A stretch of DNA of 46,274 nt from Candidatus Saccharimonadota bacterium (GCA_016234585.1 JACRBB010000031.1:1-46274), one strand, 5' to 3'; positions 18,492 through 32,066 are shown, counted from the first letter of the stretch. The notes: generated by a model from the letters alone, not told the origin. Program-made: numbers and translations.

Positions 18492-19289
18492 TCACTTGAA
18501 GTGGACACCAAAAGCGATAAGATTATTTAGCATATGTATCAGCATGCCGGCATAAAGCGCGCCGGTTTTTTCACGCAAGTAAACCAGCACCACCGATAAC
18601 AAAAATGTATCCAGCGCTGCCGCCCAAAGTAGCGGCGCTCCGTCCCCGAACTGCAGGTGGGCAGCTCCAAATATAAGACTTGTAGCCAGCAAAGCTGGTA
18701 AGAATTTTAGGCGCGAACGTAAACCAGAGTACAGATAACCGCGCACCAGCACCTCCTCGCCCAGCGGCGGCAAGATTACCAATGCTACGAAGGCTAATAC
18801 TTGGTCGAGCGATGTATTGAGAGCCTGGAAACCGACATCCTGTTTTTGGTCGGTGTTTAAGGCCGGAATCAGCGCCGTTATAACCATCACTACTATAATT
18901 AAAACGACGTAAAACGCCCCGAATCCCAACAGGCCCTTTTTTATATCTTTCCAAGCCGGAGCCCGCCCTAAACCGATTGAGGCTAGCCCCAACCCCCGGC
19001 CGCGTAAAGCCAACCACACCATAGAAACAGCTATTGCTTCAGCAATTAAAACGTAAACGAACTCCAGCGGGGTCGACCCGTCAAGAACATGGACCTCGGT
19101 TCCAGGATGCGCGATACCTACAGTAATTCCAACCAACAGTGCCGCCACCAGCTGGCTAACGATAAAAATCAAGACGGTGGTTGCAATTACTTTGACTGGG
19201 CCACCAAAATTCTTTGGCGGTTTGTTTAGCGATTTTTGCTTACCTTTTAGACGGCGCCAAAAGGGCTTTTTAGAAGAATCGTCTGACAT
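18492..19289 (-). CDS. CPBP family intramembrane glutamic endopeptidase (CAAX protease-like)
   Basis: EEVLVRGYLYS, FGAAHL and HMLNN motifs in a multi-TM protein. Confidence 0.85.
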   Translation of the reverse strand: MSDDSSKKPFWRRLKGKQKSLNKPPKNFGGPVKVIATTVLIFIVSQLVAALLVGITVGIAHPGTEVHVLDGSTPLEFVYVLIAEAIAVSMVWLALRGRGLGLASIGLGRAPAWKDIKKGLLGFGAFYVVLIIVVMVITALIPALNTDQKQDVGFQALNTSLDQVLAFVALVILPPLGEEVLVRGYLYSGLRSRLKFLPALLATSLIFGAAHLQFGDGAPLLWAAALDTFLLSVVLVYLREKTGALYAGMLIHMLNNLIAFGVHFK

Positions 19290-20454
19290 CTACGATTGTA
19301 ATTAGAGCAAAAAGCGTCAGCAGCACCGCCATGCCAGTACCGTGAATGCGTTCTTCGGCGGCGGCGCTTAACGGATGCTTGAAAAGACGAGAAAGCCACA
19401 TTACAAACAGGCGTCCACCGTCCAAGGCCGGGATTGGCAACACGTTCATCAACGCTAGGGTTAAAGAGATTATGGCAATCACCATCAGCACAAAACTAAG
19501 CCCTAAGCTACCGCCGTCCCACAGCACAGCCACAATAGCTACCGGCCCACCAACCTGAGAAGTCGCCTGTTCCTGCCCATTAGAGCGGGCCGTGTGATTG
19601 CCGGTCAGACCGCCGGCAATCAGTGAACCCAACCCGGACAAGGCGTGCCCCAGCCCCTGGAATGTCAAAACCACCAATTGTTTTGTCAGTCCTACGGCCA
19701 CAATCGGCGCGCTCCAAGTTGAACGCTGCAATGTCAAGTTAGTGGGTACTACGCCTAAGTAGCCTTTCGGGTTATTCGTTTTACTGCTGGCCTCAACTTC
19801 GGCTTTGCTAAGCAACGCGACGTTTTTTTGGACCACCTGCCCTTTATGTTTATAAGTAACCGTTACAGTTTGGCCACCAAAATATGTTGTGGCGTCATGC
19901 AGTTGCTCGGTAGTGCTAACTGCCCTGGTTTGGCTGGAGTTACTAATTTTTTGGATAACGTCCAGCGAATTTAAGCCGATTTTTGAGGCTGGTGAACCTG
20001 GGTCAACGTAACCGGCGCGGACTTCTTGTCGAACAATCTTTGTGTCGCTTTTGACGGTAAACTGGTCCTGGCCAACGGCATCAGTCGTCAAAATCTTTGG
20101 GATGCCAACTGCCGCCAAAATAGTTAGCAGCACCAGGCCGGCAATTAGGTTCATGGTCACTCCGGCCAGCATAATCTTGCTTTTTGCCCAGGTGCTGGCG
20201 GCGCCAAAACTGCCTTTACTGGTATCGCTGTCGTGTTCGCCCTTTAGTTTCACAAAACCGCCCAAAGGCAGCCAGTTCAGGCTCAAAATCATGCCGTCTT
20301 TGCGTTTTTTACCCCAAGCTCTTGGCGGGAAGCCCAGGCCAAATTCTTCAACCTTCACGCCGTTGCGGCGAGCCACGATGTAGTGGCCCCACTCATGAAC
20401 CAGCACAAGGCCCACAAATAAAATAAATCCCAGTACAGAAATAGCAATTTGCAT
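19270..20454 (-). CDS. rseP: RIP site-2 metalloprotease RseP (M50 family)
   Basis: HEWGHY (HExxH) in TM1, a central PDZ-like region, and NVLPIPALDGG near the C-terminus. Confidence 0.92.
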   Translation of the reverse strand: MQIAISVLGFILFVGLVLVHEWGHYIVARRNGVKVEEFGLGFPPRAWGKKRKDGMILSLNWLPLGGFVKLKGEHDSDTSKGSFGAASTWAKSKIMLAGVTMNLIAGLVLLTILAAVGIPKILTTDAVGQDQFTVKSDTKIVRQEVRAGYVDPGSPASKIGLNSLDVIQKISNSSQTRAVSTTEQLHDATTYFGGQTVTVTYKHKGQVVQKNVALLSKAEVEASSKTNNPKGYLGVVPTNLTLQRSTWSAPIVAVGLTKQLVVLTFQGLGHALSGLGSLIAGGLTGNHTARSNGQEQATSQVGGPVAIVAVLWDGGSLGLSFVLMVIAIISLTLALMNVLPIPALDGGRLFVMWLSRLFKHPLSAAAEERIHGTGMAVLLTLFALITIVDVRRFF

Positions 20455-20534
20455 ACAAAAACCATTATAGCCTAAAGCCCGTGGGAGTTCATTTTTAAAG
20501 CAACAGGATTTTTATACAACTTAACCATAAGCAA

Positions 20535-20563
20535 TTGCAATAATTACAAATTTAATTTATAGT
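20535..20563 (+). promoter_or_regulatory. Putative sigma70-type promoter upstream of the GC-rich cslA-glxA-like operon
   Basis: TTGCAA (20535-20540), a 17-nt spacer, then TATAGT (20558-20563), in AT-rich backbone-like sequence. A 7-bp inverted repeat follows: TACACCT (20576-20582) and AGGTGTA (20600-20606). Confidence 0.4.
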
Positions 20564-20643
20564 AATCATTTGTGTTACACCTGAGAAGATGAGTTTTATA
20601 GGTGTAGCGTGCTCGTTCAAAATTCGAGTTCCAAAAGGGAGGT

Positions 20644-22407
20644 GTGGGCTTGTCCCGCAAACCGCCAAACCGCAACTATGCCACACTGATCGGCCCCCTG
20701 ACCAAGCCACCCAGTAGGGATATGCCCTACCGGGTGCAGTACAAGAAGATGCCCACCAGTGGTGGCTTCGGCGACACCCTGATTACCCGAATCCTGGGAA
20801 TCGGCGTGCCACTGACGATGGCCTACGTCATCTACCTGCTTTTCCGGCCGGAAAACTGGCCTGTGGGTACGATGGGCAAGGTCATCACCGGCTTCGGGCT
20901 GGCCATCGCCCTGATGACGACCCTGGAGGTCTTCGCAGTTGGCCGGGCATCGCGTCTGGCCAAGTGTCCCATTCCGGTCGAACCGCAGAAGGGACATCGC
21001 GTCTGTTTCTTTACCTGCTTCGTGCCCTCCTCAGAGGACATTCACAGGCTGGAAGAGACGCTGCTGGGCATGCTCGCCCAGACGTACCATCAGATCGGAG
21101 TGGTACACATCTACGTCCTGGACGAAGGCGATTCGGATGAAGTCAAGGCACTCTGCCACAAGTTGGGTGTCGGGCACTTCAGCCGCAAGAATCGCTCCTT
21201 CCACGCCATGAGCGCGTTCAAGAACAAGTTCATGCTCCGGACCAAGTATGGCAACATCAACAGCTTCATCGCTTGGCTGAACAACGAGGACCTGCACTTC
21301 GACTTCTTCGCCGGAGTCGACTGCGACCACATCCCCAAGCCGGTATTCATCGAGAGGATGATCGGCTGGTTCCGTGATGGGAACGTGGGAGCAGTCGTGG
21401 GACCACAGACGTACGAGAACGCGTCCCCGAGCAACGCCCTTTACAGCCTGGTGGCGCGATTCGCAGAGTCGTGCCAGTTCATCTTCCACAGCGTGCTGCA
21501 GCCGGCCGGCAATCGTGCCGGATCGCCGCTGTTCGTGGGAACGAACTTCATGATCCGGGCCAGTGCCCTGAAGCAAATCGATGGCATCCAGCCGTCGGTT
21601 ACCGAAGACGCACTGACCAGTCTGGCTCTCAGCACGGCCGGCTGGAAGATCGTCTGCACTCTGGACGAACTCGCGGTGGGGCTTGGGCCTGCCACCTGGC
21701 GTGACATGTTCAAGCAGCAGCACCGCTGGAGCCTGGGCACGAATCAGATCGTGTTCCATCAGCCACGCCTGTTCCTTGGGCTTGGTTGGCGGCGCTTCTG
21801 GCACTACACGCTGATGATGAGCTACTACCCCACGGTGGCAGCCATCTTCATCCTGGGAGTGTCCAGCTGTGTCCTGTACAGCACCACCGGTACGGCCGGT
21901 CTGCGTGTGCCAATCCTCACGTGGGGAGCGCTGTACTTCGACATCCTGCTGGCCCAGATCTTCCTGTTCACCTGGAACAGGCGGCACAACGTCAGCTCCA
22001 TGGAGCCTCCGAACTCCTCGGGCTTCAGCGGACTGTTGATGGCCAGCATGTGTGCGCCCATCTACCTCGTGGCCTTCTTCCAGGCCTGGAAAGATCCGAA
22101 CAAGAACTCCAACTTCAACATCACGCCCAAGGGCAAGAAGGTCGTCAAGGACAACCTGTTGGTGTTCACAAACCACTTGATCTGGTCGGCTGTGCTGGCC
22201 GGATCGATCGCTACGGCATTCGTTTCGGGCCACACCAGCCCGTTCATGCTGATCTGGCAGTTCGTGACTCTCGGCGTCTGCGTCGGGCCGTTGGTCATCT
22301 GGCAAATCGACGCCAGAAGGAAGCATCCCAACCCATCCGGCAACCTCGAGGCACAGACCTACACCGTTCCCGACGGTGTAGGCGAAAGGGCCTCGCAGAG
22401 CATTTAG
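20644..22407 (+). CDS. cslA: Processive GT2 beta-glycan synthase, cellulose-synthase-like (CslA-like), no PilZ domain
   Basis: GT2 processive motifs are in order: VLDEGDSDE, GVDCDH (DxD), TEDALTS (TED), QQHRWSLG (QxxRW). N- and C-terminal TM bundles are present. The SD AAGGGAGG ends 1 nt before the GTG at 20644, so the in-frame TTG at 20650 is the more likely start. The segment is GC-rich. Confidence 0.85.
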   Translation: MGLSRKPPNRNYATLIGPLTKPPSRDMPYRVQYKKMPTSGGFGDTLITRILGIGVPLTMAYVIYLLFRPENWPVGTMGKVITGFGLAIALMTTLEVFAVGRASRLAKCPIPVEPQKGHRVCFFTCFVPSSEDIHRLEETLLGMLAQTYHQIGVVHIYVLDEGDSDEVKALCHKLGVGHFSRKNRSFHAMSAFKNKFMLRTKYGNINSFIAWLNNEDLHFDFFAGVDCDHIPKPVFIERMIGWFRDGNVGAVVGPQTYENASPSNALYSLVARFAESCQFIFHSVLQPAGNRAGSPLFVGTNFMIRASALKQIDGIQPSVTEDALTSLALSTAGWKIVCTLDELAVGLGPATWRDMFKQQHRWSLGTNQIVFHQPRLFLGLGWRRFWHYTLMMSYYPTVAAIFILGVSSCVLYSTTGTAGLRVPILTWGALYFDILLAQIFLFTWNRRHNVSSMEPPNSSGFSGLLMASMCAPIYLVAFFQAWKDPNKNSNFNITPKGKKVVKDNLLVFTNHLIWSAVLAGSIATAFVSGHTSPFMLIWQFVTLGVCVGPLVIWQIDARRKHPNPSGNLEAQTYTVPDGVGERASQSI

Positions 22408-22413
22408 AAGGAG

Positions 22414-24432
22414 GTGAAAACCTTGAGTGATGTAGTTTTGAGTGACGAGAGATCAGATCGCTCAACCAGGAGCGGGTCGTTCTGGCGGTGGTTCCTGATC
22501 ATGATCGCCATGATTTCGGCGGTCATGATGGCGGGCTACATAACCATCTGGGCTAACCTCGGTCGCGAACCTATCGCAGCCGCCCAGCACGGATGGCATG
22601 AGCACGTCATCAACAGCCACAGCTACACGGTCAAAAACGGCCAGTGGAACACCCCGGATCAGCCGGCTAGCCAAAAGCTAGACGACATCCATACCGCCCT
22701 GCTGAAGACCGGAAAGGTCTTCATGCTAGCGGGAAGCGGCAACAACATCAACCACTCCCACCACGAGGTCTACCAGGCCGGCATCTATGACCCGGAAACG
22801 GGTCAGACCAAGGTCCTGCGCATTCCGAACGATATGTTCTGCGCCGGCATCACCACGCTCAGCGACGGACAGTTGCTGATCGCTGGCGGCACTTCGCACT
22901 ACGAGGTGCTAAAGACCGAGGTCCAGTACGCCGGTGGCGTCATGACCATCAAGAACGAGTCGCCCGACAGCGGCACGTTCGTTCTGCCCAAGGGAACCGA
23001 GCTACGTTCACCCGGTGGCAGGTTGTACCGAACCCGGGACAGCCTTCGGGTTGACCCAGCCACCAAACAAGTGGGTCCCCGGGGAGCAGTTACGATTACG
23101 GCTTCCTCGCAGGACACGTGGGTGGATGCGGAGGCGAAAGGCGCGTCCTCGGTTTCGACCGACACGCACATCACCTACACCGTCGTTAGCGGGCTTCCCC
23201 CGGAAATTCAGTCCAACAACGTCTACGGCGTGTCTTCTTCTACCGGCCTGACGCTCGACAAGCAGGAGTTCGCGGGAGCGAGCTTCAGCTACCTGTTCGA
23301 CCCCTCGGTCGAGCAATTCACCAAGGTCGACAACCTGAAGTTCGCCCGGTGGTATCCAACCACCATCACCCTGCCCAGCGGTCGGGTTCTGGCGATTTCG
23401 GGACTGGACCAGTTTGGCCGGATCCTGCAGGGCTTCAACGAGGTATACGACCAGGTGACGCAGAAGTGGACGCTTCTGCCTCACACCAAGCTCTTCCCCA
23501 CCTACCCGGCAATGTTCGTTACCGAAAGGCCCAATACCCTGCTCTACACCGGCGGCAGCGCCGGTTACGGCAGCGACAAGATCGGCCGATCACCGGGACT
23601 CTGGAATTGGCAGACCAACGCCTTCCAAGCAATTCCCGGTTTGCGTGACAGCAACATGACGGAGACCAGTGATTCGCTTCTGCTGCCTCCGGCTAACGCC
23701 CAGCGCTACATGATCGCCGGTGGTGGTGGGGTGGGTAACTCCGAGAAGTCCACAAGCAGGACCGACATCGTCGACCTGAAGGATTCTCACCCACGCTTCA
23801 CTCCGGGTCCCGATCTGCTGACGAAGCTGCGGTACATGATTGGCACAATCCTACCGGACAACACCGTGCTCTTCAGCGGTGGCACCGCCGGTTATCGTGC
23901 CAACGGCAACAGTTACACGCACATGGCCGCCATCTACGACCCGGCCACGAACATAATGCGGCGGGTAGCTGACTCGCGCATCGGCCGCACATACCACAGC
24001 TCGGCAGTTCTGCTGCCGGACGGCTCAGTCTTCACAGCCGGCGGCGACCCGTTGTACAGCGACGCTGCCGGTAAAATCCCCGGCAGTTTCGAGCAGCGGA
24101 TCGAGATCTACAAGCCGCCCTACATGTTCCAGGGAGAAAGGCCGGTCATCATCGACGGTCCCAGCGAACTGGTGCGTGGGCAGTCTGCGGAGCTGTCGGT
24201 CTCAGCAGACCAAAAGATCACGGGTGCGCGCCTGCTTCGGCTGGGCGTCTCCACCCACACCACGGATAACGCCCAGCGTTCTGTCGAGCTGAAAATTCAG
24301 CATGACGGGACAGGAAAGCTCGGCGTCACCCTGCCCAAGAGCGGCAGATTGCTCATGGGCGGTTGGTACATGTTGTTCGTGTCCAACCAGGACGGTGTGC
24401 CTTCAGTGGCACGCATGGTCCACGTTGCGTAG
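22414..24432 (+). CDS. glxA: Membrane-anchored radical copper oxidase, galactose/glyoxal-oxidase-like (GlxA-like), kelch propeller plus DUF1929-like C-terminal domain
   Basis: N-terminal TM anchor (FWRWFLIMIAMISAVMMAGYITIW). All galactose-oxidase cofactor and ligand positions are recognisable: Cys in MFCAGITTLSDGQ, Tyr in ARWYPTTITLPSGR, Tyr-His in RTYHSSAVLLPDGSVF, His in STHTTDNAQR. The SD GAAGGAGG overlaps the GTG at 22414, so the in-frame TTG at 22423 is the likely start. Confidence 0.85.
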   Translation: MKTLSDVVLSDERSDRSTRSGSFWRWFLIMIAMISAVMMAGYITIWANLGREPIAAAQHGWHEHVINSHSYTVKNGQWNTPDQPASQKLDDIHTALLKTGKVFMLAGSGNNINHSHHEVYQAGIYDPETGQTKVLRIPNDMFCAGITTLSDGQLLIAGGTSHYEVLKTEVQYAGGVMTIKNESPDSGTFVLPKGTELRSPGGRLYRTRDSLRVDPATKQVGPRGAVTITASSQDTWVDAEAKGASSVSTDTHITYTVVSGLPPEIQSNNVYGVSSSTGLTLDKQEFAGASFSYLFDPSVEQFTKVDNLKFARWYPTTITLPSGRVLAISGLDQFGRILQGFNEVYDQVTQKWTLLPHTKLFPTYPAMFVTERPNTLLYTGGSAGYGSDKIGRSPGLWNWQTNAFQAIPGLRDSNMTETSDSLLLPPANAQRYMIAGGGGVGNSEKSTSRTDIVDLKDSHPRFTPGPDLLTKLRYMIGTILPDNTVLFSGGTAGYRANGNSYTHMAAIYDPATNIMRRVADSRIGRTYHSSAVLLPDGSVFTAGGDPLYSDAAGKIPGSFEQRIEIYKPPYMFQGERPVIIDGPSELVRGQSAELSVSADQKITGARLLRLGVSTHTTDNAQRSVELKIQHDGTGKLGVTLPKSGRLLMGGWYMLFVSNQDGVPSVARMVHVA

Positions 24433-24457
24433 CGTCCGATAAGGACATGCGCGGCAA

Positions 24458-24492
24458 GCACCCCCAAGCCATGATGGCGAGGGGGTGTTTTA
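24458..24492 (+). terminator. Rho-independent terminator after the glxA-like gene
   Basis: CACCCCC (24459-24465) pairs with GGGGGTG (24481-24487). There is an inner GCCA/TGGC stem. TTTT follows at 24488-24491. Confidence 0.6.
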
Positions 24493-24532
24493 AATTTATC
24501 AAAGGTAATTTTGGACTCATTATAAAAGCACC

Positions 24533-24583
24533 CCCGGTGCGAACGGCCATCCATGGCCACTCGCACTCGGGGGTTATCCGGTC
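24533..24583 (-). terminator. Rho-independent terminator after the GH6 gene (potentially bidirectional)
   Basis: 12-bp stem with one bulge: CCCCCGGTGCGA (24541-24552) pairs with TCGCACTCGGGGG (24571-24583). There is an inner GGCCAT/ATGGCC stem. On the minus strand it is followed by TGCTTTTAT. Confidence 0.55.
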
Positions 24584-24592
24584 CCATATGCT

Positions 24593-25573
24593 TTAGGATC
24601 CGGTTAGCTGGCTAGCCAGCTTCGGCGACCAGACACCTGCCGGCTGGCTGATGCCGTGGCAAACACCATCACTATCCCCGGGCTGTTTCACCCAGAGATA
24701 GGCGTCAACCAATGGTTGGTTGGTGCGGGTAGTCGGGCTGTCGCCCAACTTCTGCCCCGGCTGATTGCACCAGGGCTTACCGTCGTTGACCGGTGTTGGC
24801 CCAGCACCGTTCCGACTGGTGTCGATCACGAAGTGCTTGCCACCAAGCCGCTTGCTCACGGCCGTACCGTAGCGAATGCTGCGTGACGTGGTCTCGTAGT
24901 TCGCCACATTCAAGGCGAACCCGTCGGCCTCTGCCACACCGGCCTGCTTAAGTGCGTTCGCCAGCTGGGACGGATCGTCGATCCATCCAGCGTTACCCGC
25001 GTCGATGTAGACGTAGGCGTTGGACGCTCTCTTGAGCTTGCCGACCGCATAGGCCAGTAAGCTAAGATGCGCGTTGGCGTCCGTGCTGTGGCAGGCCTGA
25101 ATGGTCTGTGCCAGAGCATCCGGCTCCAGGATGATCACAACCGGGTCGTTGTTACTCATACCGACCGCGAATCGACGGATCCATGCGCGGTAGGCCGCCG
25201 GACTGGCTGCCCCTCCGGCCGATGACCCGCCGCAATCCCGGTCCGGGATATTGTAGGCCACCAGCACAGGCAGCTTGCCAAATGCCGCGACCGACTGAAC
25301 GTACTCGGCGATATCAGCCTCGAGGTACGGGTCCTTTCCGAACCACAGAGCTGACGGCTGACTGCCGATCACCTCGCGCTCCTTTGGCGTGCCGTGTGTC
25401 TGCCCATGATTTTGCGGGTCGACATACAGCTCGTAGCTGTTCAGTGGATTCGACGCGCCACTGGCACTCCTAGCGGTGGACGAACCGGAACCACCACAAC
25501 CAACAACGATCAGCGCGGTGGCGGCCATCGCCGCCACCATGGCAGCGATTGTTAGCCGTCGTACATAACTCAT
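24593..25573 (-). CDS. cslZ: Glycoside hydrolase family 6 beta-1,4-glucanase, lipoprotein (CslZ-like)
   Basis: Lipobox LIVVGC after a hydrophobic signal. GH6 blocks are present: YNIPDRDCGG, IILEPDALA, YIDAGNAGW, FALNVANY, VIDTSRNG, WCN and LWVKQPGDSDG. The segment is GC-rich. Confidence 0.88.
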   Translation of the reverse strand: MSYVRRLTIAAMVAAMAATALIVVGCGGSGSSTARSASGASNPLNSYELYVDPQNHGQTHGTPKEREVIGSQPSALWFGKDPYLEADIAEYVQSVAAFGKLPVLVAYNIPDRDCGGSSAGGAASPAAYRAWIRRFAVGMSNNDPVVIILEPDALAQTIQACHSTDANAHLSLLAYAVGKLKRASNAYVYIDAGNAGWIDDPSQLANALKQAGVAEADGFALNVANYETTSRSIRYGTAVSKRLGGKHFVIDTSRNGAGPTPVNDGKPWCNQPGQKLGDSPTTRTNQPLVDAYLWVKQPGDSDGVCHGISQPAGVWSPKLASQLTGS

Positions 25574-25634
25574 CAGACCTCACTTCGGTAGATGACGTGG
25601 GAGACTCGTTACATGCTAATTATATAATAATTAC

Positions 25635-25663
25635 ACTATATACACAATAGAGCTGAAGGTAAA
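25635..25663 (-). promoter_or_regulatory. Putative promoter for the GH6 gene
   Basis: The minus strand reads TTTACC, a 17-nt spacer, then TATAGT, in the AT-rich 95-nt gap between the frr stop and the GH6 start. Read-through from frr is equally possible. Confidence 0.3.
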
Positions 25664-25668
25664 TAACT

Positions 25669-26232
25669 TTAGACTGTAGTAATTTCTTGTTCTTTAGTTC
25701 TAACAAGATTGTCGACTTCATTTTTCTGGCCAGCCAGTAGTTCTTCAATTTGTTTTTTAAAACGTTCTAGGTCATCTTTACCAATCGACTTGTCTTTTTC
25801 GGCGGCTTCGGCGCGCCGCAGCATCTCATGGCGGATCTGGCGGGCGCTTATCATGCATTCTTCGGCTTTTTGGTTCAAGATTTTAACCATTGCCGCGCGA
25901 GACTCTGTGGTTAGCGGCGGAATTTGGATGCGCACTACCCGCCCATCGTCGGCCGGATTCAGTCCCAGAGCCTCGTTACCACGAATAGCATCACTGATAG
26001 CCTTCAGGTTACTGGGATCGAATGGAGTAATTTGTAATAAAGTGGCTTCCGGCGCGGTTATGGTGGCTGTTCCCTTAAGGGGCATTTCCTGCCCATAAAC
26101 CTCTACCTTAACATTGTCCAGCATACCCGGGTGGGCCCGGCCAGTACGGATTTTTTTAAGCTCTTCCTTAAAATGCTCCAATACGGCTTGCAATTTTGTT
26201 TTAGCTTGGTTTATTTCTTGATTCACATCCAT
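25669..26232 (-). CDS. frr: Ribosome recycling factor
   Basis: 187 aa with IRTGRAHPGMLDNVKVEVYG…LGLNPADDGRVVRIQIPPLTTESR. Backbone-like composition. Confidence 0.95.
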   Translation of the reverse strand: MDVNQEINQAKTKLQAVLEHFKEELKKIRTGRAHPGMLDNVKVEVYGQEMPLKGTATITAPEATLLQITPFDPSNLKAISDAIRGNEALGLNPADDGRVVRIQIPPLTTESRAAMVKILNQKAEECMISARQIRHEMLRRAEAAEKDKSIGKDDLERFKKQIEELLAGQKNEVDNLVRTKEQEITTV

Positions 26233-26271
26233 GAGCTATAAGTTCTTTTTAACTGATTATATTGTACCTCA

Positions 26272-26300
26272 TTGTTAATGATCAGTTTTTATTGTATAAT
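26272..26300 (+). promoter_or_regulatory. Putative sigma70-type promoter (extended -10) for the two small membrane protein genes
   Basis: TTGTTA (26272-26277), a 17-nt spacer, then TGTTATAAT-type -10 (TATAAT at 26295-26300). Confidence 0.4.
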
Positions 26301-26328
26301 TAATTTATTCGATGTCCTTCTAAAAGGG

Positions 26329-26499
26329 ATGGTCGTGTACATTTTATTTCTACTTTTTGGGATGAACACTGCTGCGGTAGGCGCAGCGCTTTACTTGCAG
26401 CTGGTCAGGAAAAACCCTGCACGCCCACTCCTTATTGCCCTGGCAATAGGTATGTGTGCTTTGGGGGGCATATTGATCGGAATTTCCATATTCTCGTGA
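26329..26499 (+). CDS. Small hydrophobic protein (56 aa, 2 predicted TM)
   Basis: The tracked ORF 26272-26499 would begin inside the promoter. The in-frame ATG at 26329, preceded by AAAGGGA, gives MVVYILFLLFGMNTAAVGAALYLQLVRKNPARPLLIALAIGMCALGGILIGISIFS. Confidence 0.45.
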   Translation: MVVYILFLLFGMNTAAVGAALYLQLVRKNPARPLLIALAIGMCALGGILIGISIFS

Positions 26500-26519
26500 G
26501 TTAAAGGAGTGCAAGCAGA

Positions 26520-26780
26520 GTGCTTGAAATACTGATCTCTCTATTGGCATACGTTATTGCATTCGTTATAGCCCATAAGGCTCACAAGCATCTACAAGAT
26601 GAGCCAATACTCCTCAAGATGTGGGCTGTAGCCCTATTCACGCTGGTAGTTGGTGTATTTATAGGAGTAGTTATTCCTATATTTGCCTACGCTGTCTCGG
26701 TCTTGCCGCTACCATCACCAGCAATGGCCATCGTGATAGCGAGTCTGCTTCCCAACCACAGGCAAATTCCACCTCGTTAG
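26520..26780 (+). CDS. Small hydrophobic protein (86 aa, ~3 predicted TM)
   Basis: GTG start preceded by AAAGGAG about 10 nt upstream. Strongly hydrophobic sequence. No recognised family. Confidence 0.5.
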   Translation: MLEILISLLAYVIAFVIAHKAHKHLQDEPILLKMWAVALFTLVVGVFIGVVIPIFAYAVSVLPLPSPAMAIVIASLLPNHRQIPPR

Positions 26781-26880
26781 GATACTAGGTTGTTATGGTA
26801 TTGATAACCATGGCAAACCCTAGCGAGGTAGTAAAAGTAATAAGTATTCGAACCTGCGGGTTGAGCCCAACTCCCCGTCT

Positions 26881-26906
26881 GCACCAGATAGAAGCTGGTG
26901 CTTTTC
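26881..26906 (+). terminator. Rho-independent terminator after the small membrane protein pair
   Basis: GCACCAG (26881-26887), a 7-nt loop, CTGGTGC (26895-26901), then TTTTC. Confidence 0.5.
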
Positions 26907-27014
26907 AATTATTTGTTCAACCAATACATCGTCATTTTAAGTCAAAAATATGTTATAATATGTACTGATCTACACCCGTAGATACCTTAAAAATCTGCAA
27001 CGAAATGGGATGAT

Positions 27015-27623
27015 ATGCCCAGGTGGGCTAAATTGGTCTTAGGGGCGGCGCTTACGTGCACGTGCTTTTTCTTGCCTTTGACACTGGTGTTGGGATCGGC
27101 AGAGAACCTGCCGCCGCCTATCCCTCACCATCCCGGCGGACATTGCACCGAGGGGGCAACGACCCCCTACCTGGTCCACATCAAGACTCCAAGCAGTGCT
27201 AGTGTGGACATCTCCAACGGCCACTTTGAGGGGAAGTGCAATCCGGCCATCGTCCTGTACCAGGTGCACTTCATGCTGGAATACGTGCCAAAGGTCCCGG
27301 ACACCGCCGGTGGCTGGGTGACGCTGAAGTACGCGATCTGTGAAAGCGCCTACTTGGACCCACCCAAGGTCACAGGCGGACTTGCCTGCCACGACCTCAG
27401 CCCCAACTTCGACGCCCCTATCCACATGAAGATCACACTGACTGCGAAGTGTGTCAAACGGCACAAGAAGTCCGCAGTAGATCTGAGGTTGTGGCGAACT
27501 CGATACTGGACAACGGCATATAACGCCCATGGCGGCGAAGCCAACTCCAGGGTCATCGACCATGATGAGATCCTCCCGTGCGTCCCCAAAAATGTACCGG
27601 GAGTCGACCCAAGCCGCCGCTAG
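27015..27623 (+). CDS. Hypothetical secreted Cys-rich protein (GC-rich gene)
   Basis: Signal-like N-terminus MPRWAKLVLGAALTCTCFFLPLTLVLGSA and 6 Cys in the mature part. No recognised domain. The antisense shadow ORF 27039-27563 is typical of GC3-rich coding DNA. Confidence 0.6.
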   Translation: MPRWAKLVLGAALTCTCFFLPLTLVLGSAENLPPPIPHHPGGHCTEGATTPYLVHIKTPSSASVDISNGHFEGKCNPAIVLYQVHFMLEYVPKVPDTAGGWVTLKYAICESAYLDPPKVTGGLACHDLSPNFDAPIHMKITLTAKCVKRHKKSAVDLRLWRTRYWTTAYNAHGGEANSRVIDHDEILPCVPKNVPGVDPSRR

Positions 27624-27724
27624 AGGTTTAATCGTGCCGACACTGTTTCCGTGATTTCACAATCGCGGGCGGTGTCGGTACGAGTTCTTTTGTTGCAGTA
27701 AGGTGAGCTATAAAGCTCCTCCTG

Positions 27725-27755
27725 CGCCAATCTGCACGGATTGGCGTATTTTTTA
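27725..27755 (+). terminator. Rho-independent terminator after the 202-aa gene
   Basis: CGCCAATC (27725-27732), a 6-nt loop, GATTGGCG (27739-27746), then TATTTTTTAT. Confidence 0.65.
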
Positions 27756-27793
27756 TGATTATAAAGTGTGATTTAAATGATTATAAGTTTAAG

Positions 27794-27829
27794 GCTCCCG
27801 CCTCCGGCCGAAGCCGGAGGACGGGGAGC
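27794..27829 (-). terminator. GC-rich hairpin after the 399-aa gene (weak U-tract)
   Basis: CCTCCGGC (27801-27808), tetraloop CGAA, GCCGGAGG (27813-27820). The stem extends further with bulges. On the minus strand it is followed by TTAAACTTATAAT. Confidence 0.4.
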
Positions 27830-27856
27830 AGTTGTCATGAATGATGGTGTTGGCGC

Positions 27857-29056
27857 CTAGCGAAAGGGCGTGTGCCGGACCTGGAAGGCCGGGAACCAGA
27901 CCCGGATGCCGTTGCTGCGCAGCGTCGCCAGTGCGGTACCGGTGTACACGTCGGTGCCGTCGGCCTTGGGAATCGTGAAGCCCACCCAGGCGCAGTACAC
28001 GGCTGTGGCACTCCGAACAGTGCACTGCCTGACATCCAGGCCACGTGCACCGGAGTACTGCCGCCTGACGGCCTTCTTGATGGCCGTCTTGGCCTTGGCC
28101 ACCGTTAGCGTGCCGGCGTTGACCCTCACCAGGATCACCTGGTTGGGGTTGGCGTGGTACTCCTGGAGCAACGGGTCCACCGTCGTACCGTCATCTGGCG
28201 GCGCGTCGCCCAGGGGATCCGGAGCGGCCGAGCTGTCGTCGCGCGCCAGGATGTCCTTGACGCTCATGAAGAGCGTGAAGGGCCGAACGCCCCGGTCGGT
28301 CTGAACGGCATCGACGCTCACCCTCAGGTACGTGGCGTTAGCCGCCGGCGTGACCGGCGTGAGCGTGTAGCAGTGGTACGCGTCCAGCGTGACCGGCACG
28401 TAGCTGTAGGCCTTGGCCATGCCGGGGACCATCAGGTCGGGGTCCTCGGAGTCACTGTAGAGCACCGCTCCGTTGATCGAAACCGTCGCTGGCAGCGACG
28501 AGTCGAAGCAGAAGTTCGCGCCGATCCCACGATGGGGACCGAGCACGGTGTACGGCTGGAGCTGGATCTTGCCACCGAAGGCGGAAACGACACCATCTCC
28601 GTTGGCATCGTGCGCCACCGTCGACGAGCCGACACCAGCACCACCCGGAGTCGCGCCGGACGGCACCGTGGTGGAACCACAGCTGCCCGGCTTGACATCG
28701 GCCTTGACCCAGGGGAACTTCGCGTGGCGGTAGACCATCTTGCCGACATACGTCGGCCCGTTGATCACCACCTTGAAGCTGCCCTTGAGGCTGCCGATCA
28801 GCGTGCCCTTAATGGGCAGCTGACGATGGATATAGTGGCCGGTGTAGACACCACGCTGCGTGAACAGCGGCGTGGAAGCCGGCAGGCAGAAGCTCTGCCC
28901 ACGGACTACGGCCGCCTGGGACTGCGAAGACGAACTGACCACGATGGGCTCAGCCGTCTTGAGAGCACCAGAAGGTGCCGACACACCGACCGCGAACGGT
29001 GCCGTGGCCAAGGCCATCGCACCGGCGGTCAGTACCAGCGTATTGCGGAGCCCCAT
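27857..29056 (-). CDS. Hypothetical secreted protein (GC-rich gene, actinobacterial-style signal peptide)
   Basis: 399 aa with signal MGLRNTLVLTAGAMALATAPFAVGVSA and 6 Cys. RBS GGAAGGGGG lies upstream. No recognised domain. The antisense shadow ORF 28154-29131 is consistent with high GC3. Confidence 0.65.
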   Translation of the reverse strand: MGLRNTLVLTAGAMALATAPFAVGVSAPSGALKTAEPIVVSSSSQSQAAVVRGQSFCLPASTPLFTQRGVYTGHYIHRQLPIKGTLIGSLKGSFKVVINGPTYVGKMVYRHAKFPWVKADVKPGSCGSTTVPSGATPGGAGVGSSTVAHDANGDGVVSAFGGKIQLQPYTVLGPHRGIGANFCFDSSLPATVSINGAVLYSDSEDPDLMVPGMAKAYSYVPVTLDAYHCYTLTPVTPAANATYLRVSVDAVQTDRGVRPFTLFMSVKDILARDDSSAAPDPLGDAPPDDGTTVDPLLQEYHANPNQVILVRVNAGTLTVAKAKTAIKKAVRRQYSGARGLDVRQCTVRSATAVYCAWVGFTIPKADGTDVYTGTALATLRSNGIRVWFPAFQVRHTPFR

Positions 29057-29295
29057 TGGGACCCCCTTCCATTGTTAGGAGGCAGAATACTAGTCATCCA
29101 TGACTTTTTAACGAACTCGTCCGAAAAGTAAGAGGCAGCTATAAGCCGCCCCTCATAAAACATCGGACATTAACTACTATAATACAATAATTAAGCTAAT
29201 AAGTCCACCAGCTCTTGATGCTATTGCCATATTATTATATAATTTTCTAATCGTCGATGAGTCACATCGGCACGTACTCCGGGAGGAGATCAAAA

Positions 29296-29412
29296 ATGAG
29301 CCCAAACTGGGTAAATATCCTGGGTTGGACGTTTGCGGAAGCCCTTCTGCTATTACTGGTCTTTATGGTGGCCGCCGGTAGAAATAACTGCTTTTTCATA
29401 AATTCAAATTAG
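29296..29412 (+). CDS. Candidate 38-aa membrane micropeptide (not in the ORF track)
   Basis: Strong SD GGGAGGAG (29281-29288) lies 7 nt upstream of the ATG. Translation is MSPNWVNILGWTFAEALLLLLVFMVAAGRNNCFFINSN*. Confidence 0.4.
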   Translation: MSPNWVNILGWTFAEALLLLLVFMVAAGRNNCFFINSN

Positions 29413-29440
29413 AGCTTAACAGATTAGAGAAGTTCCCTGT

Positions 29441-29477
29441 AAAGAAAAGAGCCTACGCCGTTATTGGCGAAGGCTCT
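29441..29477 (-). terminator. Rho-independent terminator after the 93-aa gene
   Basis: AGAGCCTaCGCC (29448-29459), loop GTTATT, GGCGaAGGCTCT (29466-29477), with one A-A mismatch. On the minus strand it is followed by TTTTCTTT. Confidence 0.55.
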
Positions 29478-29505
29478 GTTCCCTATATCCGCCTAGCGAG
29501 TGCTT

Positions 29506-29787
29506 CTAGGCCAACGAAGTCGTGCGGTCCGGCAATTTCTGCCTATCGAACTTCCTGTTGGCCTTGTCGACTTCGGCCTCAAGCTTGGTGCGGATAGTTG
29601 CGAGGGAAGCGACCTGCTGCGGGTCATCGGTCGCCTCGATACTGGCGACGATCCACCAATAGGCCTCGTTTACGACGACGTACCGGTGTTCGGTCATGTC
29701 GTTGCGGCTAAAGTACGCGCCGATGAGGCTGCCGACACATACCGTGCCGAGGGCAATTAGAAAAATCACAACCACGATCACGGTCAT
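29506..29787 (-). CDS. Hypothetical small membrane-anchored protein (GC-rich gene)
   Basis: 93 aa with N-terminal TM MTVIVVVIFLIALGTVCVGSLIGAYF, then a charged helical tail. AAGGAG lies 6 nt upstream of the ATG. Confidence 0.55.
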   Translation of the reverse strand: MTVIVVVIFLIALGTVCVGSLIGAYFSRNDMTEHRYVVVNEAYWWIVASIEATDDPQQVASLATIRTKLEAEVDKANRKFDRQKLPDRTTSLA

Positions 29788-29873
29788 GCCAAGTCTCCTT
29801 GCATACTAACTTGTAGGGAGCAAGCCGTCTAGGTAAACCTCAAAGATCACTCCGAGCTGTCTAGACTTAATTT

Positions 29874-29902
29874 ATTATATACTTTTTGGTTATTTTTGTC
29901 TA
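29874..29902 (-). promoter_or_regulatory. Putative sigma70-type promoter for the 93-aa gene
   Basis: The minus strand reads TAGACA, a 17-nt spacer, then TATAAT. Confidence 0.35.
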
Positions 29903-30086
29903 GATCTAACATTCGGGTTCGGACATCTGCCGAGCCCTGATTAGATGTTGTTTAAAAGAGGCGTCCTTGGGTGCGAGAGTTGTTTAACGAGTAAATATGC
30001 CACTGGCATATTTAGGAGGAGTTCTAGAGCAAGCCTGTTTTAAAGCAACAGCTACTCACGGTGAGGCTGCAGTCCGAGAGCTTTTG

Positions 30087-30112
30087 CATACTTTTGGCGG
30101 TCCAAAAGTATG
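30087..30112 (-). terminator. Perfect 11-bp hairpin directly abutting the tsf stop codon (no clear U-tract)
   Basis: CATACTTTTGG (30087-30097), a 4-nt loop, CCAAAAGTATG (30102-30112). Confidence 0.35.
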
Positions 30113-30712
30113 TTAGTTGACTTCACCAAGGGCAAAGCGGGAAAAACGGCGTACCACGATGTTTTCACCGAGTTTGGCCACGTGCTCTTTCACATATTCA
30201 CCAATGACTTGGTCTGGGTTTTTAATAAACGGCTGCTCCAGTAAGCACTTCTCGGCAAAGTGTTTCTTTACCATTCCGTCAACTATCTGAGCAATCATGT
30301 TATCGGGCTTGCCTTCTGATTTAGCCTTTTCGCTGAATTCAGCCTCGGCTGCTTTGCGGACATCGGCCGGAATGTCGTCGACACTCACAAACTCTGGAGC
30401 GGCAGCGGCAATGTGCATGGCAATATCTTTTACCAGCTCTTTAAATTCGTCCGTCTTAGCCACAAAATCAGTCTCACAGTTAACTTCTACAATTACACCG
30501 ATCCGGCCATCGTGTACATAACTGCCAACCAGCCCTGCCCTGGCCTCGCGCTCAGCGCGCTTATCGGCTTTGGTCAGCCCTTTTTTACGCATCGCGGCTA
30601 AGGCTTTATCAAAGTCCCCGCCGGCTTCTACCAAGGCTTGTTTGGCGTCGGTTATGCCCACGCCGGTAAGCCCGCGCAGACGCTTGATTTCCTCGATTGA
30701 TACTTCGCTCAT
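30113..30712 (-). CDS. tsf: Translation elongation factor Ts (short form)
   Basis: N-terminal UBA-like IKRLRGLTGVGITDAKQALVEAGGDFDKALAAMRKKG. 199 aa. Lies immediately downstream of rpsB. Confidence 0.95.
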   Translation of the reverse strand: MSEVSIEEIKRLRGLTGVGITDAKQALVEAGGDFDKALAAMRKKGLTKADKRAEREARAGLVGSYVHDGRIGVIVEVNCETDFVAKTDEFKELVKDIAMHIAAAAPEFVSVDDIPADVRKAAEAEFSEKAKSEGKPDNMIAQIVDGMVKKHFAEKCLLEQPFIKNPDQVIGEYVKEHVAKLGENIVVRRFSRFALGEVN

Positions 30713-30715
30713 TTT

Positions 30716-31513
30716 TTATCCTATTCCCTTCACAGCTTCAACCGGGGGCTCGACCGGAGTTGCGGGGGTTTTAGTTTCGGCTGCTTTATCTTTATCTGCG
30801 GGCTTGGCCGACGCCGACTTTGCGGCTCTAGCCTTACCTGCCAAAATGGCCTTTTCTACGTAGCTTAAAATCAGACTGATGGTTTTGGTGGCGTCGTCGT
30901 TACAAGGAATCGGGTAATCGGCTAGGGTGGGATCAACATTGGTGTCAATTAGCGCTACCACTGGGATGCCAAGTTTTTTGGCTTCGCGTACAGCGTTTAT
31001 ATCCTCTAGTACGTCAATCACTAAAACCGCGCCGGGTTTGGCAGCCATCTCTTTGATACCACCATACATCTGGTTCATGGCTTCAATTTCTTCTTCGTAA
31101 CGCTGGACTTCCAACTTATTGTATTTAGCGGCCAGTTCGCCGGAAGCCATCCGGTTTTCTAAGTCTTTCAGGTATTTGATGCGCCCACCAATGGTGTTTT
31201 GGTTGGTCAACATACCGCCCAGCCATCGCTCGGAAACGTAAGGCATACTTGTTGTTTCAGCCGTAGACTTTATGATGTCTTTGGCCTGGCGCTTGGTGCT
31301 TACCAGCAACACCTGCTTGCCAGCGGCGGCTGTGTCGGTCAAAAAAGCCAAAGCCTTTTGCAGGCCTTCAACCGTCTTGGTTAAATCTATGATGTGGTTT
31401 CCATCGCGTTTGCTATGGATATTGGGGGCCATTTTTGGGTGCCAGCGGCTAGCTTTGTGCCCAAAGTGCGCGCCGGATTCCAACAGTTGTTTGATGTCTA
31501 CATCTGTAGCCAT
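30716..31513 (-). CDS. rpsB: 30S ribosomal protein S2
   Basis: LLESGAHFGHKASRWHPKM…ERWLGGMLTN. C-terminal Ala/Lys/Pro-rich extension. Confidence 0.96.
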   Translation of the reverse strand: MATDVDIKQLLESGAHFGHKASRWHPKMAPNIHSKRDGNHIIDLTKTVEGLQKALAFLTDTAAAGKQVLLVSTKRQAKDIIKSTAETTSMPYVSERWLGGMLTNQNTIGGRIKYLKDLENRMASGELAAKYNKLEVQRYEEEIEAMNQMYGGIKEMAAKPGAVLVIDVLEDINAVREAKKLGIPVVALIDTNVDPTLADYPIPCNDDATKTISLILSYVEKAILAGKARAAKSASAKPADKDKAAETKTPATPVEPPVEAVKGIG

Positions 31514-31685
31514 TGATTACTAATCCTTCCTCTTCGTTTGGGCTTACCCGCGGAGCTCTGCACGAACTACCGCTGGGAGGATTCACACCCAAACTGCTTA
31601 ATTAATTGTACCTACACAATACCCCTGTTTCTATATTTTTGCAACAGATACAATTATTGATATAAATAATGTTTTATTATAAAAT

Positions 31686-32066
31686 ATGTATTATATGTCC
31701 TCTCGAAGAATGCCCGGTATAGAATTAACTCCCGAATTAGCTCAACGTACAGCCGAGTTATTTGTTAATACCCCAGATGGAGAAGTTATTGAGCAACCAT
31801 TTGGCGGAGGGTCACCCATTGTCTATCCCTACCTCATACAAGAAGCCGCGTTCGACATAATCAGAAACCTGGGAGCTACTGAAGTCGATGGCACCATTCA
31901 AGAGGACAGGTTAGCTTTATCGGTATCTGTAAATGGCCTAGCGACAATGGCCAGACAGTACGCACCCAACTGGCGCGAAATTAACGCCAAACGAGCGCAA
32001 GCTGCCCGTAAGCGTAAAAGCCTGCTAACCGACCAGTTTTATGAGCAGTTGACCCCAGAGGGGTAA
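31686..32066 (+). CDS. Hypothetical protein
   Basis: 126-aa ORF in an otherwise empty gap, divergent from rpsB. No recognised motif. The start is uncertain (ATG at 31686 or 31695). Confidence 0.45.
   Translation: MYYMSSRRMPGIELTPELAQRTAELFVNTPDGEVIEQPFGGGSPIVYPYLIQEAAFDIIRNLGATEVDGTIQEDRLALSVSVNGLATMARQYAPNWREINAKRAQAARKRKSLLTDQFYEQLTPEG

Follow-up and report, generated by a model that had tools for sequence, protein, structure and literature searches.

Accessory gene blocks on both sides of frr in a Saccharimonadales contig: a cellulose synthase module of actinobacterial type and a hypervariable secreted-protein cassette

Here we describe two blocks of accessory genes that lie on either side of frr in a 46,274-nt contig (GCA_016234585.1 JACRBB010000031.1:1-46274, Candidatus Saccharimonadota bacterium), the whole of which is referred to below as the window. 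The contig belongs to the Saccharimonadales, a lineage of the candidate phyla radiation (CPR; Patescibacteria). Block A (20455-25668) separates rseP from frr and, as read from its sequence, is a complete and intact CslA–GlxA–CslZ cellulose synthase module of actinobacterial type. Block B (26233-30112) separates frr from tsf and is a multi-allelic, hypervariable replacement cassette, older than block A. In the account that we consider probable, the two short spacers beside frr would be hot spots for insertion and replacement of accessory DNA within an otherwise rigid core, block A being a recent gain and block B a cassette whose alleles are swapped among strains.

Results

Core gene order and empty sites beside frr

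The context of the two blocks was established by a tblastn search of the window proteins against 163 loci around frr homologues, drawn from GTDB genomes and JGI metagenomes; closer relatives (L166-L173) came from a separate protein search with frr. Throughout the 163 loci the order prfA(-), L31(-), rpsB, tsf, frr, rseP, CAAX protease, proS, greA-like, lysS is near-invariant, and the same core, from prfA to lysS, is common to about 170 related loci. The backbone genes of the window include those for a class-I lysyl-tRNA synthetase, a short ProRS, a 199-aa EF-Ts, SecA, an LCP-family protein and a heliorhodopsin, and contigs labelled Saccharimonadales or Saccharibacteria make up nearly all of the top matches of frr, tsf, rpsB and rseP.

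The exact frr protein had no entry on record. When GTDB genomes and JGI metagenomes were scanned with frr, the closest relatives were 72% and 71% identical, respectively, and all were without both blocks. The relatives from the separate search are closer. The frr protein is 93% identical in L171 and 85-87% identical in L166-L170 and L173 (87% in L166-L169, 86% in L173). At the nucleotide level, rseP is 90-91% identical in L166 and L171 (90.9% in L171), in an alignment that stops at 20456, and L166-L169 are 82-91% identical to the window over 20 kb.

Among these relatives were the empty sites that an earlier sequence-only reading of this DNA, which took both blocks for insertions, had proposed to look for. 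L166 and L170 are empty at both positions, with the arrangement tsf-(38/80 bp)-frr-(74-76 bp)-rseP. In L171 frr and rseP are 76 bp apart, and in L173 they are also adjacent; the distance between the two genes over L166, L170, L171 and L173, all at 82-91% nucleotide identity to the window, is 60-95 bp. Over the clade closest to the window the gap measures 31-150 bp, and the relatives' spacers hold no gene remnants. None of the 163 frr loci gave a tblastn match to cslA, glxA, the GH6 gene, orf202, orf399, orf93, tm75 or tm86, and cslA, glxA and GH6 are absent from all of the approximately 170 related loci, nearest relatives included. Because relatives have empty sites, we read both blocks as having been added to a core that was ancestrally compact.

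GC-rich accessory genes recur at the tsf–frr site across the clade. In other relatives this spacer ranges from 6 bp to 2.8 kb and its cargo is unrelated, comprising a pair of PLD-like proteins in L002, a CDP-alcohol phosphatidyltransferase in L001 and L008 (called by Pfam in L008; the L001 gene resembles it on sequence inspection), an HD-domain protein in L054, and assorted orphans. The GC content at third codon positions (GC3) of the cargo is 0.84-0.94 in L001, L006, L008, L092 and L093, well above that of the backbone, and GC3-rich membrane-protein genes lie in the gap in L001 (1753-2448), L008 (8929-9567), L006 (3259-3747) and L092 (3950-4366).

The earlier reading had also noted that pyrH, uppS and cdsA are missing from the locus. 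Their absence is real, but the expected order pyrH-frr-uppS-cdsA is not ancestral here. At this site, pyrH and cdsA are absent from every locus whose gaps were inspected; the absence is a clade trait and not an effect of insertion. Within the order Saccharimonadales only uppS, encoding an undecaprenyl-diphosphate synthase of ~230 aa, is ever found between frr and rseP, in some loci together with a polyprenyl synthase of ~360 aa, and this is confined to more distant Saccharimonadales loci.

Composition of the blocks

Steps in composition at the block borders, first suspected from hand counts, were borne out by both the sliding GC profile and the GC3 of individual genes. The sliding GC is ~0.43-0.52 in the backbone, 0.60 at 21.0-25.5 kb, 0.43-0.45 at 25.5-27.0 kb, a low stretch that covers frr and two small open reading frames (ORFs), and 0.57-0.65 at 27.0-29.0 kb. 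For the 36 backbone genes GC3 is 0.508 ± 0.055 (range 0.36-0.60), and there are six outliers (z 3.7-6.0), namely cslA (0.82), glxA (0.77), GH6 (0.71), orf202 (0.73), orf399 (0.83) and orf93 (0.78). Third positions in the blocks are thus enriched in G and C as claimed, but to 71-83% and not to "almost all". The antisense ORFs of 431, 325 and 174 aa exist, are the sole antisense ORFs above 150 aa listed in 15-35 kb, and are found solely opposite GC3-rich genes, an expected effect because third positions there avoid A/T. The two small ORFs, tm75 and tm86, form the low-GC pair of tiny hydrophobic proteins already described and have the native composition (GC3 0.44-0.47), but they belong to the variable cassette and not to the backbone.

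Block A: a cellulose synthase module

The genes assigned earlier as rseP, cslA, glxA, GH6, frr, tsf and rpsB were correctly identified and placed, as shown by domain and structure matches (Table 1). The likely start of cslA, a glycosyltransferase family 2 (GT2) gene, is a TTG at 20650, 7 nt past a GGGAGG ribosome-binding site. Aligned with BcsA (PDB 5ej1/4hg6), its product keeps the catalytic signature in register, with DxDH (as DCDH), TED and QxxRW (as QQHRW). The GT2 core of the BcsA-type synthases aligns with that of the window protein, but only weakly (E 1e-16); Pfam found no PilZ domain, there is no BcsB, and the partner is the copper oxidase GlxA. The protein is 36-37% identical to the cslA products of L081-L083.

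The glxA gene starts 7 nt past the cslA stop (a 6-nt gap) and encodes an N-terminal hydrophobic membrane anchor. In the alignment with PDB 4unm (E 1.5e-162), the Cys, Trp-Tyr, Tyr-His and His positions of the active site, which make up the copper site and the cross-link, are aligned and conserved; we take these to be Cys121, Trp288-Tyr289, Tyr501-His502 and His589 of the GlxA structure. For the product of the GH6 gene (family 6 of the glycoside hydrolases), the best solved structure is 1uoz/1up0 ("putative cellulase"; E 4e-57). It keeps the catalytic DRDCG motif, begins with a lipoprotein-type signal peptide ending in ...VVGC, and has GH6 as its sole Pfam domain.

All three components of the hyphal-tip cslA-glxA-cslZ system of Streptomyces (SCO2836-2838; PMC11022532, PMC9040799, PMC4736821) are matched here. 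In Streptomyces, CslA and GlxA are sufficient for cellulose synthesis in vitro (PMC11022532), whereas CslZ is a membrane-tethered lipoprotein that aids glucan deposition at the cell surface, encoded after cslA-glxA in the opposite orientation (PMC9040799). Like that system, block A combines a GT2 synthase that has no detected PilZ domain and retains TED and QxxRW, a membrane-anchored GlxA, and a GH6 lipoprotein with no detected carbohydrate-binding module, with cslA and glxA coupled and cslZ on the opposite strand. Unlike it, the module resides in a Patescibacterium, presumably with a small genome, and not in a filamentous actinobacterium. Identity to the actinobacterial proteins is only 36-52%, and the GC content is 0.60, compared with 0.66-0.72 in actinobacterial-type loci. 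The module lies between frr and rseP, with no lpmP, SCO2833-2835, sco or dtpA nearby; in particular, the 46-kb window encodes no counterparts of SCO2833-2835.

The junction sequences suggest that the block A genes are wired to native promoters. The left spacer contains a promoter-like site for cslA, TTGCAA-17-TATAGT (20535-20563), and the right spacer one for GH6, TTTACC-17-TATAGT, on the minus strand (25663-25635), both with sigma-70-like hexamers. These flanks have a GC of 0.33-0.36, compared with 0.68-0.72 in the intergenic DNA of the actinobacterial-type loci L081 and L082. From 2 nt past the rseP start codon on, the window no longer resembles the 74-76 bp spacers found in L166, L170 and L171. 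Even so, a TATAAT box stands 9 nt upstream of that codon, where the relatives have a TATACT box. Because its catalytic motifs are intact and its genes lie behind AT-rich promoters of native style, the module is probably expressed and would lay beta-1,4-glucan on the cell surface.

Origin of block A

The best non-self GlxA match among 5.8 billion proteins is 52% identical, and the window sequence is the sole member of its protein cluster, found on one contig. All top GlxA matches that carry a name are from Actinobacteria (Solirubrobacterales, Actinoplanes, Streptomyces, Cryptosporangium, Pseudonocardia). Window GlxA is 45-51% identical to representatives of five actinobacterial groups, which are 48-58% identical among themselves across orders; it stands about as far from each group as the groups do from each other. 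In the nearest loci, L081-L083 (GC 0.66-0.69), all three genes occur as well, but GH6 lies upstream in divergent orientation. The sole full-length plasmid match to GlxA, on a Streptomyces megaplasmid, is 42.5% identical.

The GC3 of block A is 0.71-0.82, compared with 0.83-0.93 in L081 and L082, which would fit partial amelioration of a high-GC import. Its arrival appears recent, because it is absent from relatives at a backbone synonymous divergence (dS) of only ~0.3. Since so short a time cannot give 50% protein divergence, the direct donor would be an unsampled lineage. Block A would then be a recent, lineage-specific horizontal gain, with Actinobacteria as the donor phylum that we infer.

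Block B: a variable secreted-protein cassette

The sequence-only reading took block B, too, for an insertion. That it is accessory and GC-rich and has an empty site in L166 and L170 was confirmed; that it is a unique insertion was not, as homologues of similar GC occur in L164 and in L165 with L171. In L164 (JGI), rpsB and tsf are followed by an orf399 homologue and then, on the opposite strand, by homologues of orf202, tm86 and tm75, which is the order and orientation of the window. L165 (Logan) and L171 share an overlap of 198 nt at 100% identity, and together they give rseP-frr-tm75'-tm86'-orf399'-tsf, a strain without orf202 and without block A; an 896-bp indel in L165 takes out exactly orf202. 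Homologues of tm75 and tm86 are found at the same position in L164, L165 and L171, with 42-45% protein identity over the aligned parts (tblastn). The segment that only the window has, next to tsf, is bounded in L164 by sequences matching window 29213 and 30113 that are only 8 bp apart; it includes promoter-like sites at 29215-29243(+) and 29902-29874(-). With these refinements on block B, the tiny membrane proteins and the ancestral order, the reading of the blocks as insertions is supported.

Divergence between the window and L164 differs sharply between core and cassette. For rpsB and tsf, dS is 0.31 and 0.36 and protein identity 96% (up to 98% by tblastn) and 97%, respectively, and the nucleotide alignment, at 91.8% through the two genes, ends exactly at the tsf stop codon (30113). 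The block B genes have 37-51% protein identity, with dS of 0.7-1.4 per gene and up to 1.8 in segments. The orf202 product is 47% identical to that of L164 3459-4058(-) by tblastn and 46% in a codon alignment with dS 1.2. For tm86 the identity is 37-42%, the full-length codon alignment giving 37% and dS 1.4 (1.44), and for the aligned part of tm75 it is 44%. Along orf399, nucleotide identity is 79% over the signal peptide and promoter, and there is no detectable similarity over ~750 bp of the N-domain (residues 31-290), for which protein identity is 25-40% and dS 0.84-1.64. The C-domain (residues 291-399) is 90% identical as protein with a dS of 0.024, and beyond the near-identical patch that contains it, towards frr, there are only scattered segments of 74-87% nucleotide identity. 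Between L164 and L165, orf399 has a dS of about 0.25 throughout and 86% protein identity.

Read in this way, the sequences indicate that strains carry discrete, anciently diverged allele classes of block B, with alleles far older than the strains themselves, and that gene conversion has recently linked the lineages of the window and L164 in at least one patch. A fourth, very divergent allele at the tsf–frr site is probably carried by L173, in which a partial ORF directly upstream of frr (1-582) matches the orf399 family by hhalign (E 3e-6, 5e-5). Because of the discrete allele classes, the gene-conversion patch and the gene-sized indels, we regard block B as a replacement-type hypervariable locus kept by recombination.

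Close homologues of orf399 among 5.8e9 proteins are two only, P0122 (L164) and P0123 (L165), both next to tsf. A profile search with the N-domain against 1.84e9 representative proteins returned five distant members, which are secreted, 289-330 aa long, and have conserved Cys and DxNxDG motifs. One family member is on a 44-kb contig with ComEC, sortase and RuvABC; none of the members shows an actinobacterial context. An AlphaFold model of orf399 built from an 8-sequence alignment is confident for the C-domain only (pLDDT 83-92), while a 3-sequence alignment gave pLDDT 37, and Foldseek against the PDB returned only non-specific beta-sandwich matches, with E above 1e-3 and a TM score below 0.2. 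Pfam and PHROGs gave no match for orf202, orf399, orf93, tm75 or tm86, nor did NCBIfam for orf202 or orf399. An origin of block B from the same actinobacterial source as block A was considered but is not supported, as its only relatives lie in Saccharimonadales-like contexts. The block B genes may encode exported surface proteins under diversifying or frequency-dependent selection.

Replacement-type flexible islands, such as those for O-antigen, capsule and glycosylation, are held between conserved core genes. Block B resembles them in its fixed site between core genes, in combining ~92% backbone identity with synonymous-saturated alleles, in the sharp identity breaks at core-gene borders, and in its internal recombination patches and atypical composition. 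It differs from them in cargo, a small group of orphan proteins, either secreted or in the membrane, and not sugar-biosynthesis genes, in its size of only ~3-4 kb, and in its occurrence in a CPR bacterium whose cultured relatives are attached to hosts.

Table 1. Features of the window around frr (nucleotide positions in the window)
Feature	Position	Strand	Evidence and remarks
rseP (site-2 protease)	19270..20454	-	Pfam Peptidase_M50 E 1.9e-41; left anchor of block A
Left junction spacer	20455..20643		AT-rich, GC 0.33; promoter-like site for cslA
14-nt exact direct repeat TTTTAAAGCAACAG, left copy	20493..20506	+	39 nt from rseP start codon
cslA-like GT2 cellulose synthase	20644..22407	+	Pfam Glyco_trans_2_3 3.8e-17; NCBIfam CelA 1.5e-27; GC3 0.82
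glxA radical copper oxidase	22414..24432	+	NCBIfam NF052501 742.5 bits; Pfam PF21110 GlxA beta-barrel, PF09118 GO-like_E_set
cslZ-like GH6 glucanase, predicted lipoprotein	24593..25573	-	Pfam Glyco_hydro_6 1.6e-67; convergent with glxA
Right junction spacer	25574..25668		AT-rich, GC 0.36; promoter-like site for GH6
frr	25669..26232	-	Pfam RRF 1.3e-51; GC3 0.46; native core gene between the two blocks
tm75	26272..26499	+	Small hydrophobic membrane-protein ORF
tm86	26520..26780	+	Small hydrophobic membrane-protein ORF
orf202	27015..27623	+	Secreted Cys-rich orphan; in L164, absent from L165
Near-identical recombination patch	27781..28181	-	orf399 C-domain and 3' spacer; 93.5% nt identity to L164, 85.5% to L165
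orf399	27857..29056	-	Secreted two-domain protein; hypervariable beta-rich N-domain; conserved C-domain, one helix and four strands
Window-only segment	29214..30112		899 bp adjoining tsf stop; absent from L164, L165
38-aa hydrophobic membrane-peptide ORF	29297..29412	+	Strong GGGAGGAG ribosome-binding site; in window-only segment
orf93	29506..29787	-	GC3 0.78; in window-only segment
14-nt exact direct repeat TTTTAAAGCAACAG, right copy	30038..30051	+	62 nt from tsf stop codon
tsf	30113..30712	-	Pfam EF_TS; with rpsB, right anchor of block B
rpsB	30716..31513	-	With tsf, right anchor of block B

Proposed acquisition and exchange of the blocks

Natural competence is known in cultured Saccharibacteria. 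In the mechanism that we propose, foreign DNA would be taken up and enter a short spacer by illegitimate recombination, and the inserted genes would then be spread or replaced among strains by homologous recombination, for which tsf, frr, rseP and the conserved orf399 C-domain would provide the arms, with additional gene-sized indels within block B. The homologous-recombination step has direct evidence in the patch with dS 0.024 and in the abrupt loss of identity at the tsf stop codon.

A site-specific mobile element (phage, integrative and conjugative element, or integron-like cassette) is an alternative vehicle for block A, its integrase having been lost or lying outside the island. The observation that speaks for it is the exact 14-nt repeat TTTTAAAGCAACAG, one copy of which stands just inside each outer border and which is absent from all 172 related loci searched; by itself the repeat could be due to chance or be the remnant of an attachment site. 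However, it brackets block A, the native frr and block B together and not either block alone, and by our own estimate from region and repeat length chance would give ~0.3 such pairs in 12.6 kb with AT-rich spacers. The other repeats found in the search for attachment sites were short and at chance level only. The borders had already been described as without integrase, transposase, tRNA or clear attachment repeats, and for the genes domain scans, ARAGORN and Rfam agree: integrase, recombinase and transposase domains are in no scanned ORF of the window, ARAGORN found no tRNA or tmRNA in it, and Rfam gave no match over its whole length. There is no phage-like gene, nor, in these scans, the integrase or the tRNA insertion of an integrase-mediated island. 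Phages gave no match to block B DNA, plasmids none to orf399, and GlxA is at most 42.5% identical to any plasmid protein. We consider entry on such an element improbable.

Diversity-generating retroelements are common in CPR genomes, and the diversity of block B might have been made in place by hypermutation of this or another kind, or by very strong positive selection. The variable part is indeed limited to exposed regions of secreted proteins, next to a conserved domain. But block B lacks the hallmarks of a diversity-generating retroelement, there being no reverse transcriptase domain in any scanned ORF and no template/variable repeat pair in 19.0-31.6 kb. Synonymous sites are saturated as well (dS 0.8-1.8), and the variation extends over a stretch of more than 750 bp and to indels of whole genes. 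The single allele class common to L164 and L165, with its ordinary divergence (dS ~0.25), further speaks against continuous hypermutation. We consider diversification in place very unlikely.

A third possibility is that the contig is a chimera of assembly or binning, in which GC-rich fragments of co-occurring Actinobacteria were joined into a Saccharimonadales contig. The jump in GC is abrupt, block A is known from one contig only with GlxA in a single-member cluster, and several related public contigs are evidently mis-binned. Against this, four joins would be required, each restoring perfect core synteny and strand, and the spacers around the GC-rich genes are AT-rich (GC 0.33-0.48, compared with 0.68-0.72 in the intergenic DNA of actinobacterial-type loci), which itself argues against a chimera. 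Moreover, the GC-rich orf399–tsf junction was recovered independently in L164 (JGI) and L165 (Logan), two further samples, and no sequenced protein is more than 52% identical to those of block A; there is no plausible co-assembled donor on record. We consider a chimera very unlikely. Equally unlikely is ancient vertical inheritance with repeated loss in the relatives: diverged copies of block B are common to three or four related strains, and block A has no close match in the databases, as might be expected of an old resident, but block A is missing from ~170 loci, including the nearest relatives and the outgroups L166 and L170, which would need dozens of precise deletions, its GC3 of 0.71-0.83 has not relaxed to the 0.51 of the genome, and the relatives' frr-rseP spacers are short (31-150 bp in the nearest) and free of gene remnants.

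Horizontal gain of block A and allele exchange at block B thus remain our preferred account, against which several points have to be set. Block A, with its junctions, is seen on a single metagenomic contig, and the idea of a role in host attachment draws on that one contig. Its proteins are at most 52% identical to anything known, and their actinobacterial origin is argued from the taxonomic distribution of the family and not from a close match. GlxA, at 742.5 bits, falls just below the NCBIfam NF052501 equivalog cut-off of 800, and the window has no gene for LpmP (an AA10 monooxygenase), a Sco copper chaperone or the DtpA peroxidase. None of the block B genes has an actinobacterial homologue, and a shared donor therefore does not account for their high GC. 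Finally, the borders carry no mobility genes, tRNA or convincing repeats and the window no competence genes, so the entry route is one that we purely infer.

Other features of the window and of related contigs

An amino-acid kinase gene at 17417-18241 (-), between the CAAX protease gene and proS, was considered as the missing pyrH and rejected, as it scores as proB-like. An amino-acid-kinase gene occupies the same slot in L166-L169, and there are weak matches of 26-28% in L046 and L129; the other relatives, including L170, are without one. Between the L31 gene and prfA, the window has a gene (32450-33355, -; GC 0.43) for an S-adenosylmethionine-dependent methyltransferase resembling cyclopropane fatty-acid and mycolic-acid synthases. 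It is found in no related locus examined, the spacer there being 66 bp in L166, and is a third, low-GC, strain-specific insertion. The rpsB–L31 interval (31535-32046, compared with L166) is a further variable site of the same neighborhood: the window has one orphan ORF (31686-32066), and L166 has ~2.3 kb with a fatty-acid desaturase, a protein with a region like the C-terminal domain of the RNA polymerase alpha subunit, and another ORF.

The heliorhodopsin gene lies at 8357-9190 (-; Pfam PF18761, E 3e-85), and L170 also has one nearby. At 42006-46127 (-) there is a 1373-aa ORF with no Pfam match, in which the GC content at second codon positions (0.53) is above that at first positions (0.48); it may encode a large surface protein. 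Four public contigs of metagenome-assembled genomes (L002, L033, L039 and L055) have full Saccharimonadales synteny and frr proteins 56-66% identical to that of the window, and were deposited under Binatia, Burkholderiaceae, Limnocylindria and Babeliales; these labels suggest binning errors in public genomes.

Discussion

An actinobacteria-type CslA-GlxA-CslZ module inside a Saccharimonadales genome is new, as is the adjacent secreted-protein cassette with deep alleles at a hot spot framed by universal core genes; a literature search found no paper linking GlxA to Saccharibacteria in a relevant way. Horizontal gain and flexible islands are of a kind already known, CPR included (e.g. PMC8764695). 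The closest parallel is the arginine deiminase system, a horizontally gained module of mammal-associated Saccharibacteria (PMC8764695). As in that case, a multi-gene module was acquired by a Saccharibacteria lineage and is proposed to shape the relationship with the host; pathway, habitat and likely donor phylum differ, and the gain described here is that of a single strain, known from sequence. The relatives of the window come from soil, rhizosphere and groundwater metagenomes.

Saccharibacteria have tiny genomes and include soil lineages not yet in culture. Cultured Saccharibacteria live attached to host cells, which are Actinobacteria, and by analogy the carrier of block A probably lives attached to a host cell as well. 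Block A offers a concrete candidate for a surface polymer in host interaction and hints at the host or at the source of the DNA. Block B shows secreted proteins as deeply diverged alleles that are swapped between near-identical strains, and allele swapping of this sort is usually linked to host, phage or immune pressure. With highly conserved genes on both sides of the tsf-frr and frr-rseP spacers, the hot spot is easy to survey across metagenomes.

We put forward only tentatively, as an idea more apt to fail than to hold, that the module is captured hyphal-tip cellulose machinery of the type found in filamentous Actinobacteria, used to build or imitate host glucan, and that the adjacent cassette sets strain-level host specificity, the two forming a compact host-interaction locus at the recombination hot spot around frr. 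If this were true, the surface glucan would serve attachment to, or concealment on, filamentous Actinobacteria, which would be the likely hosts.

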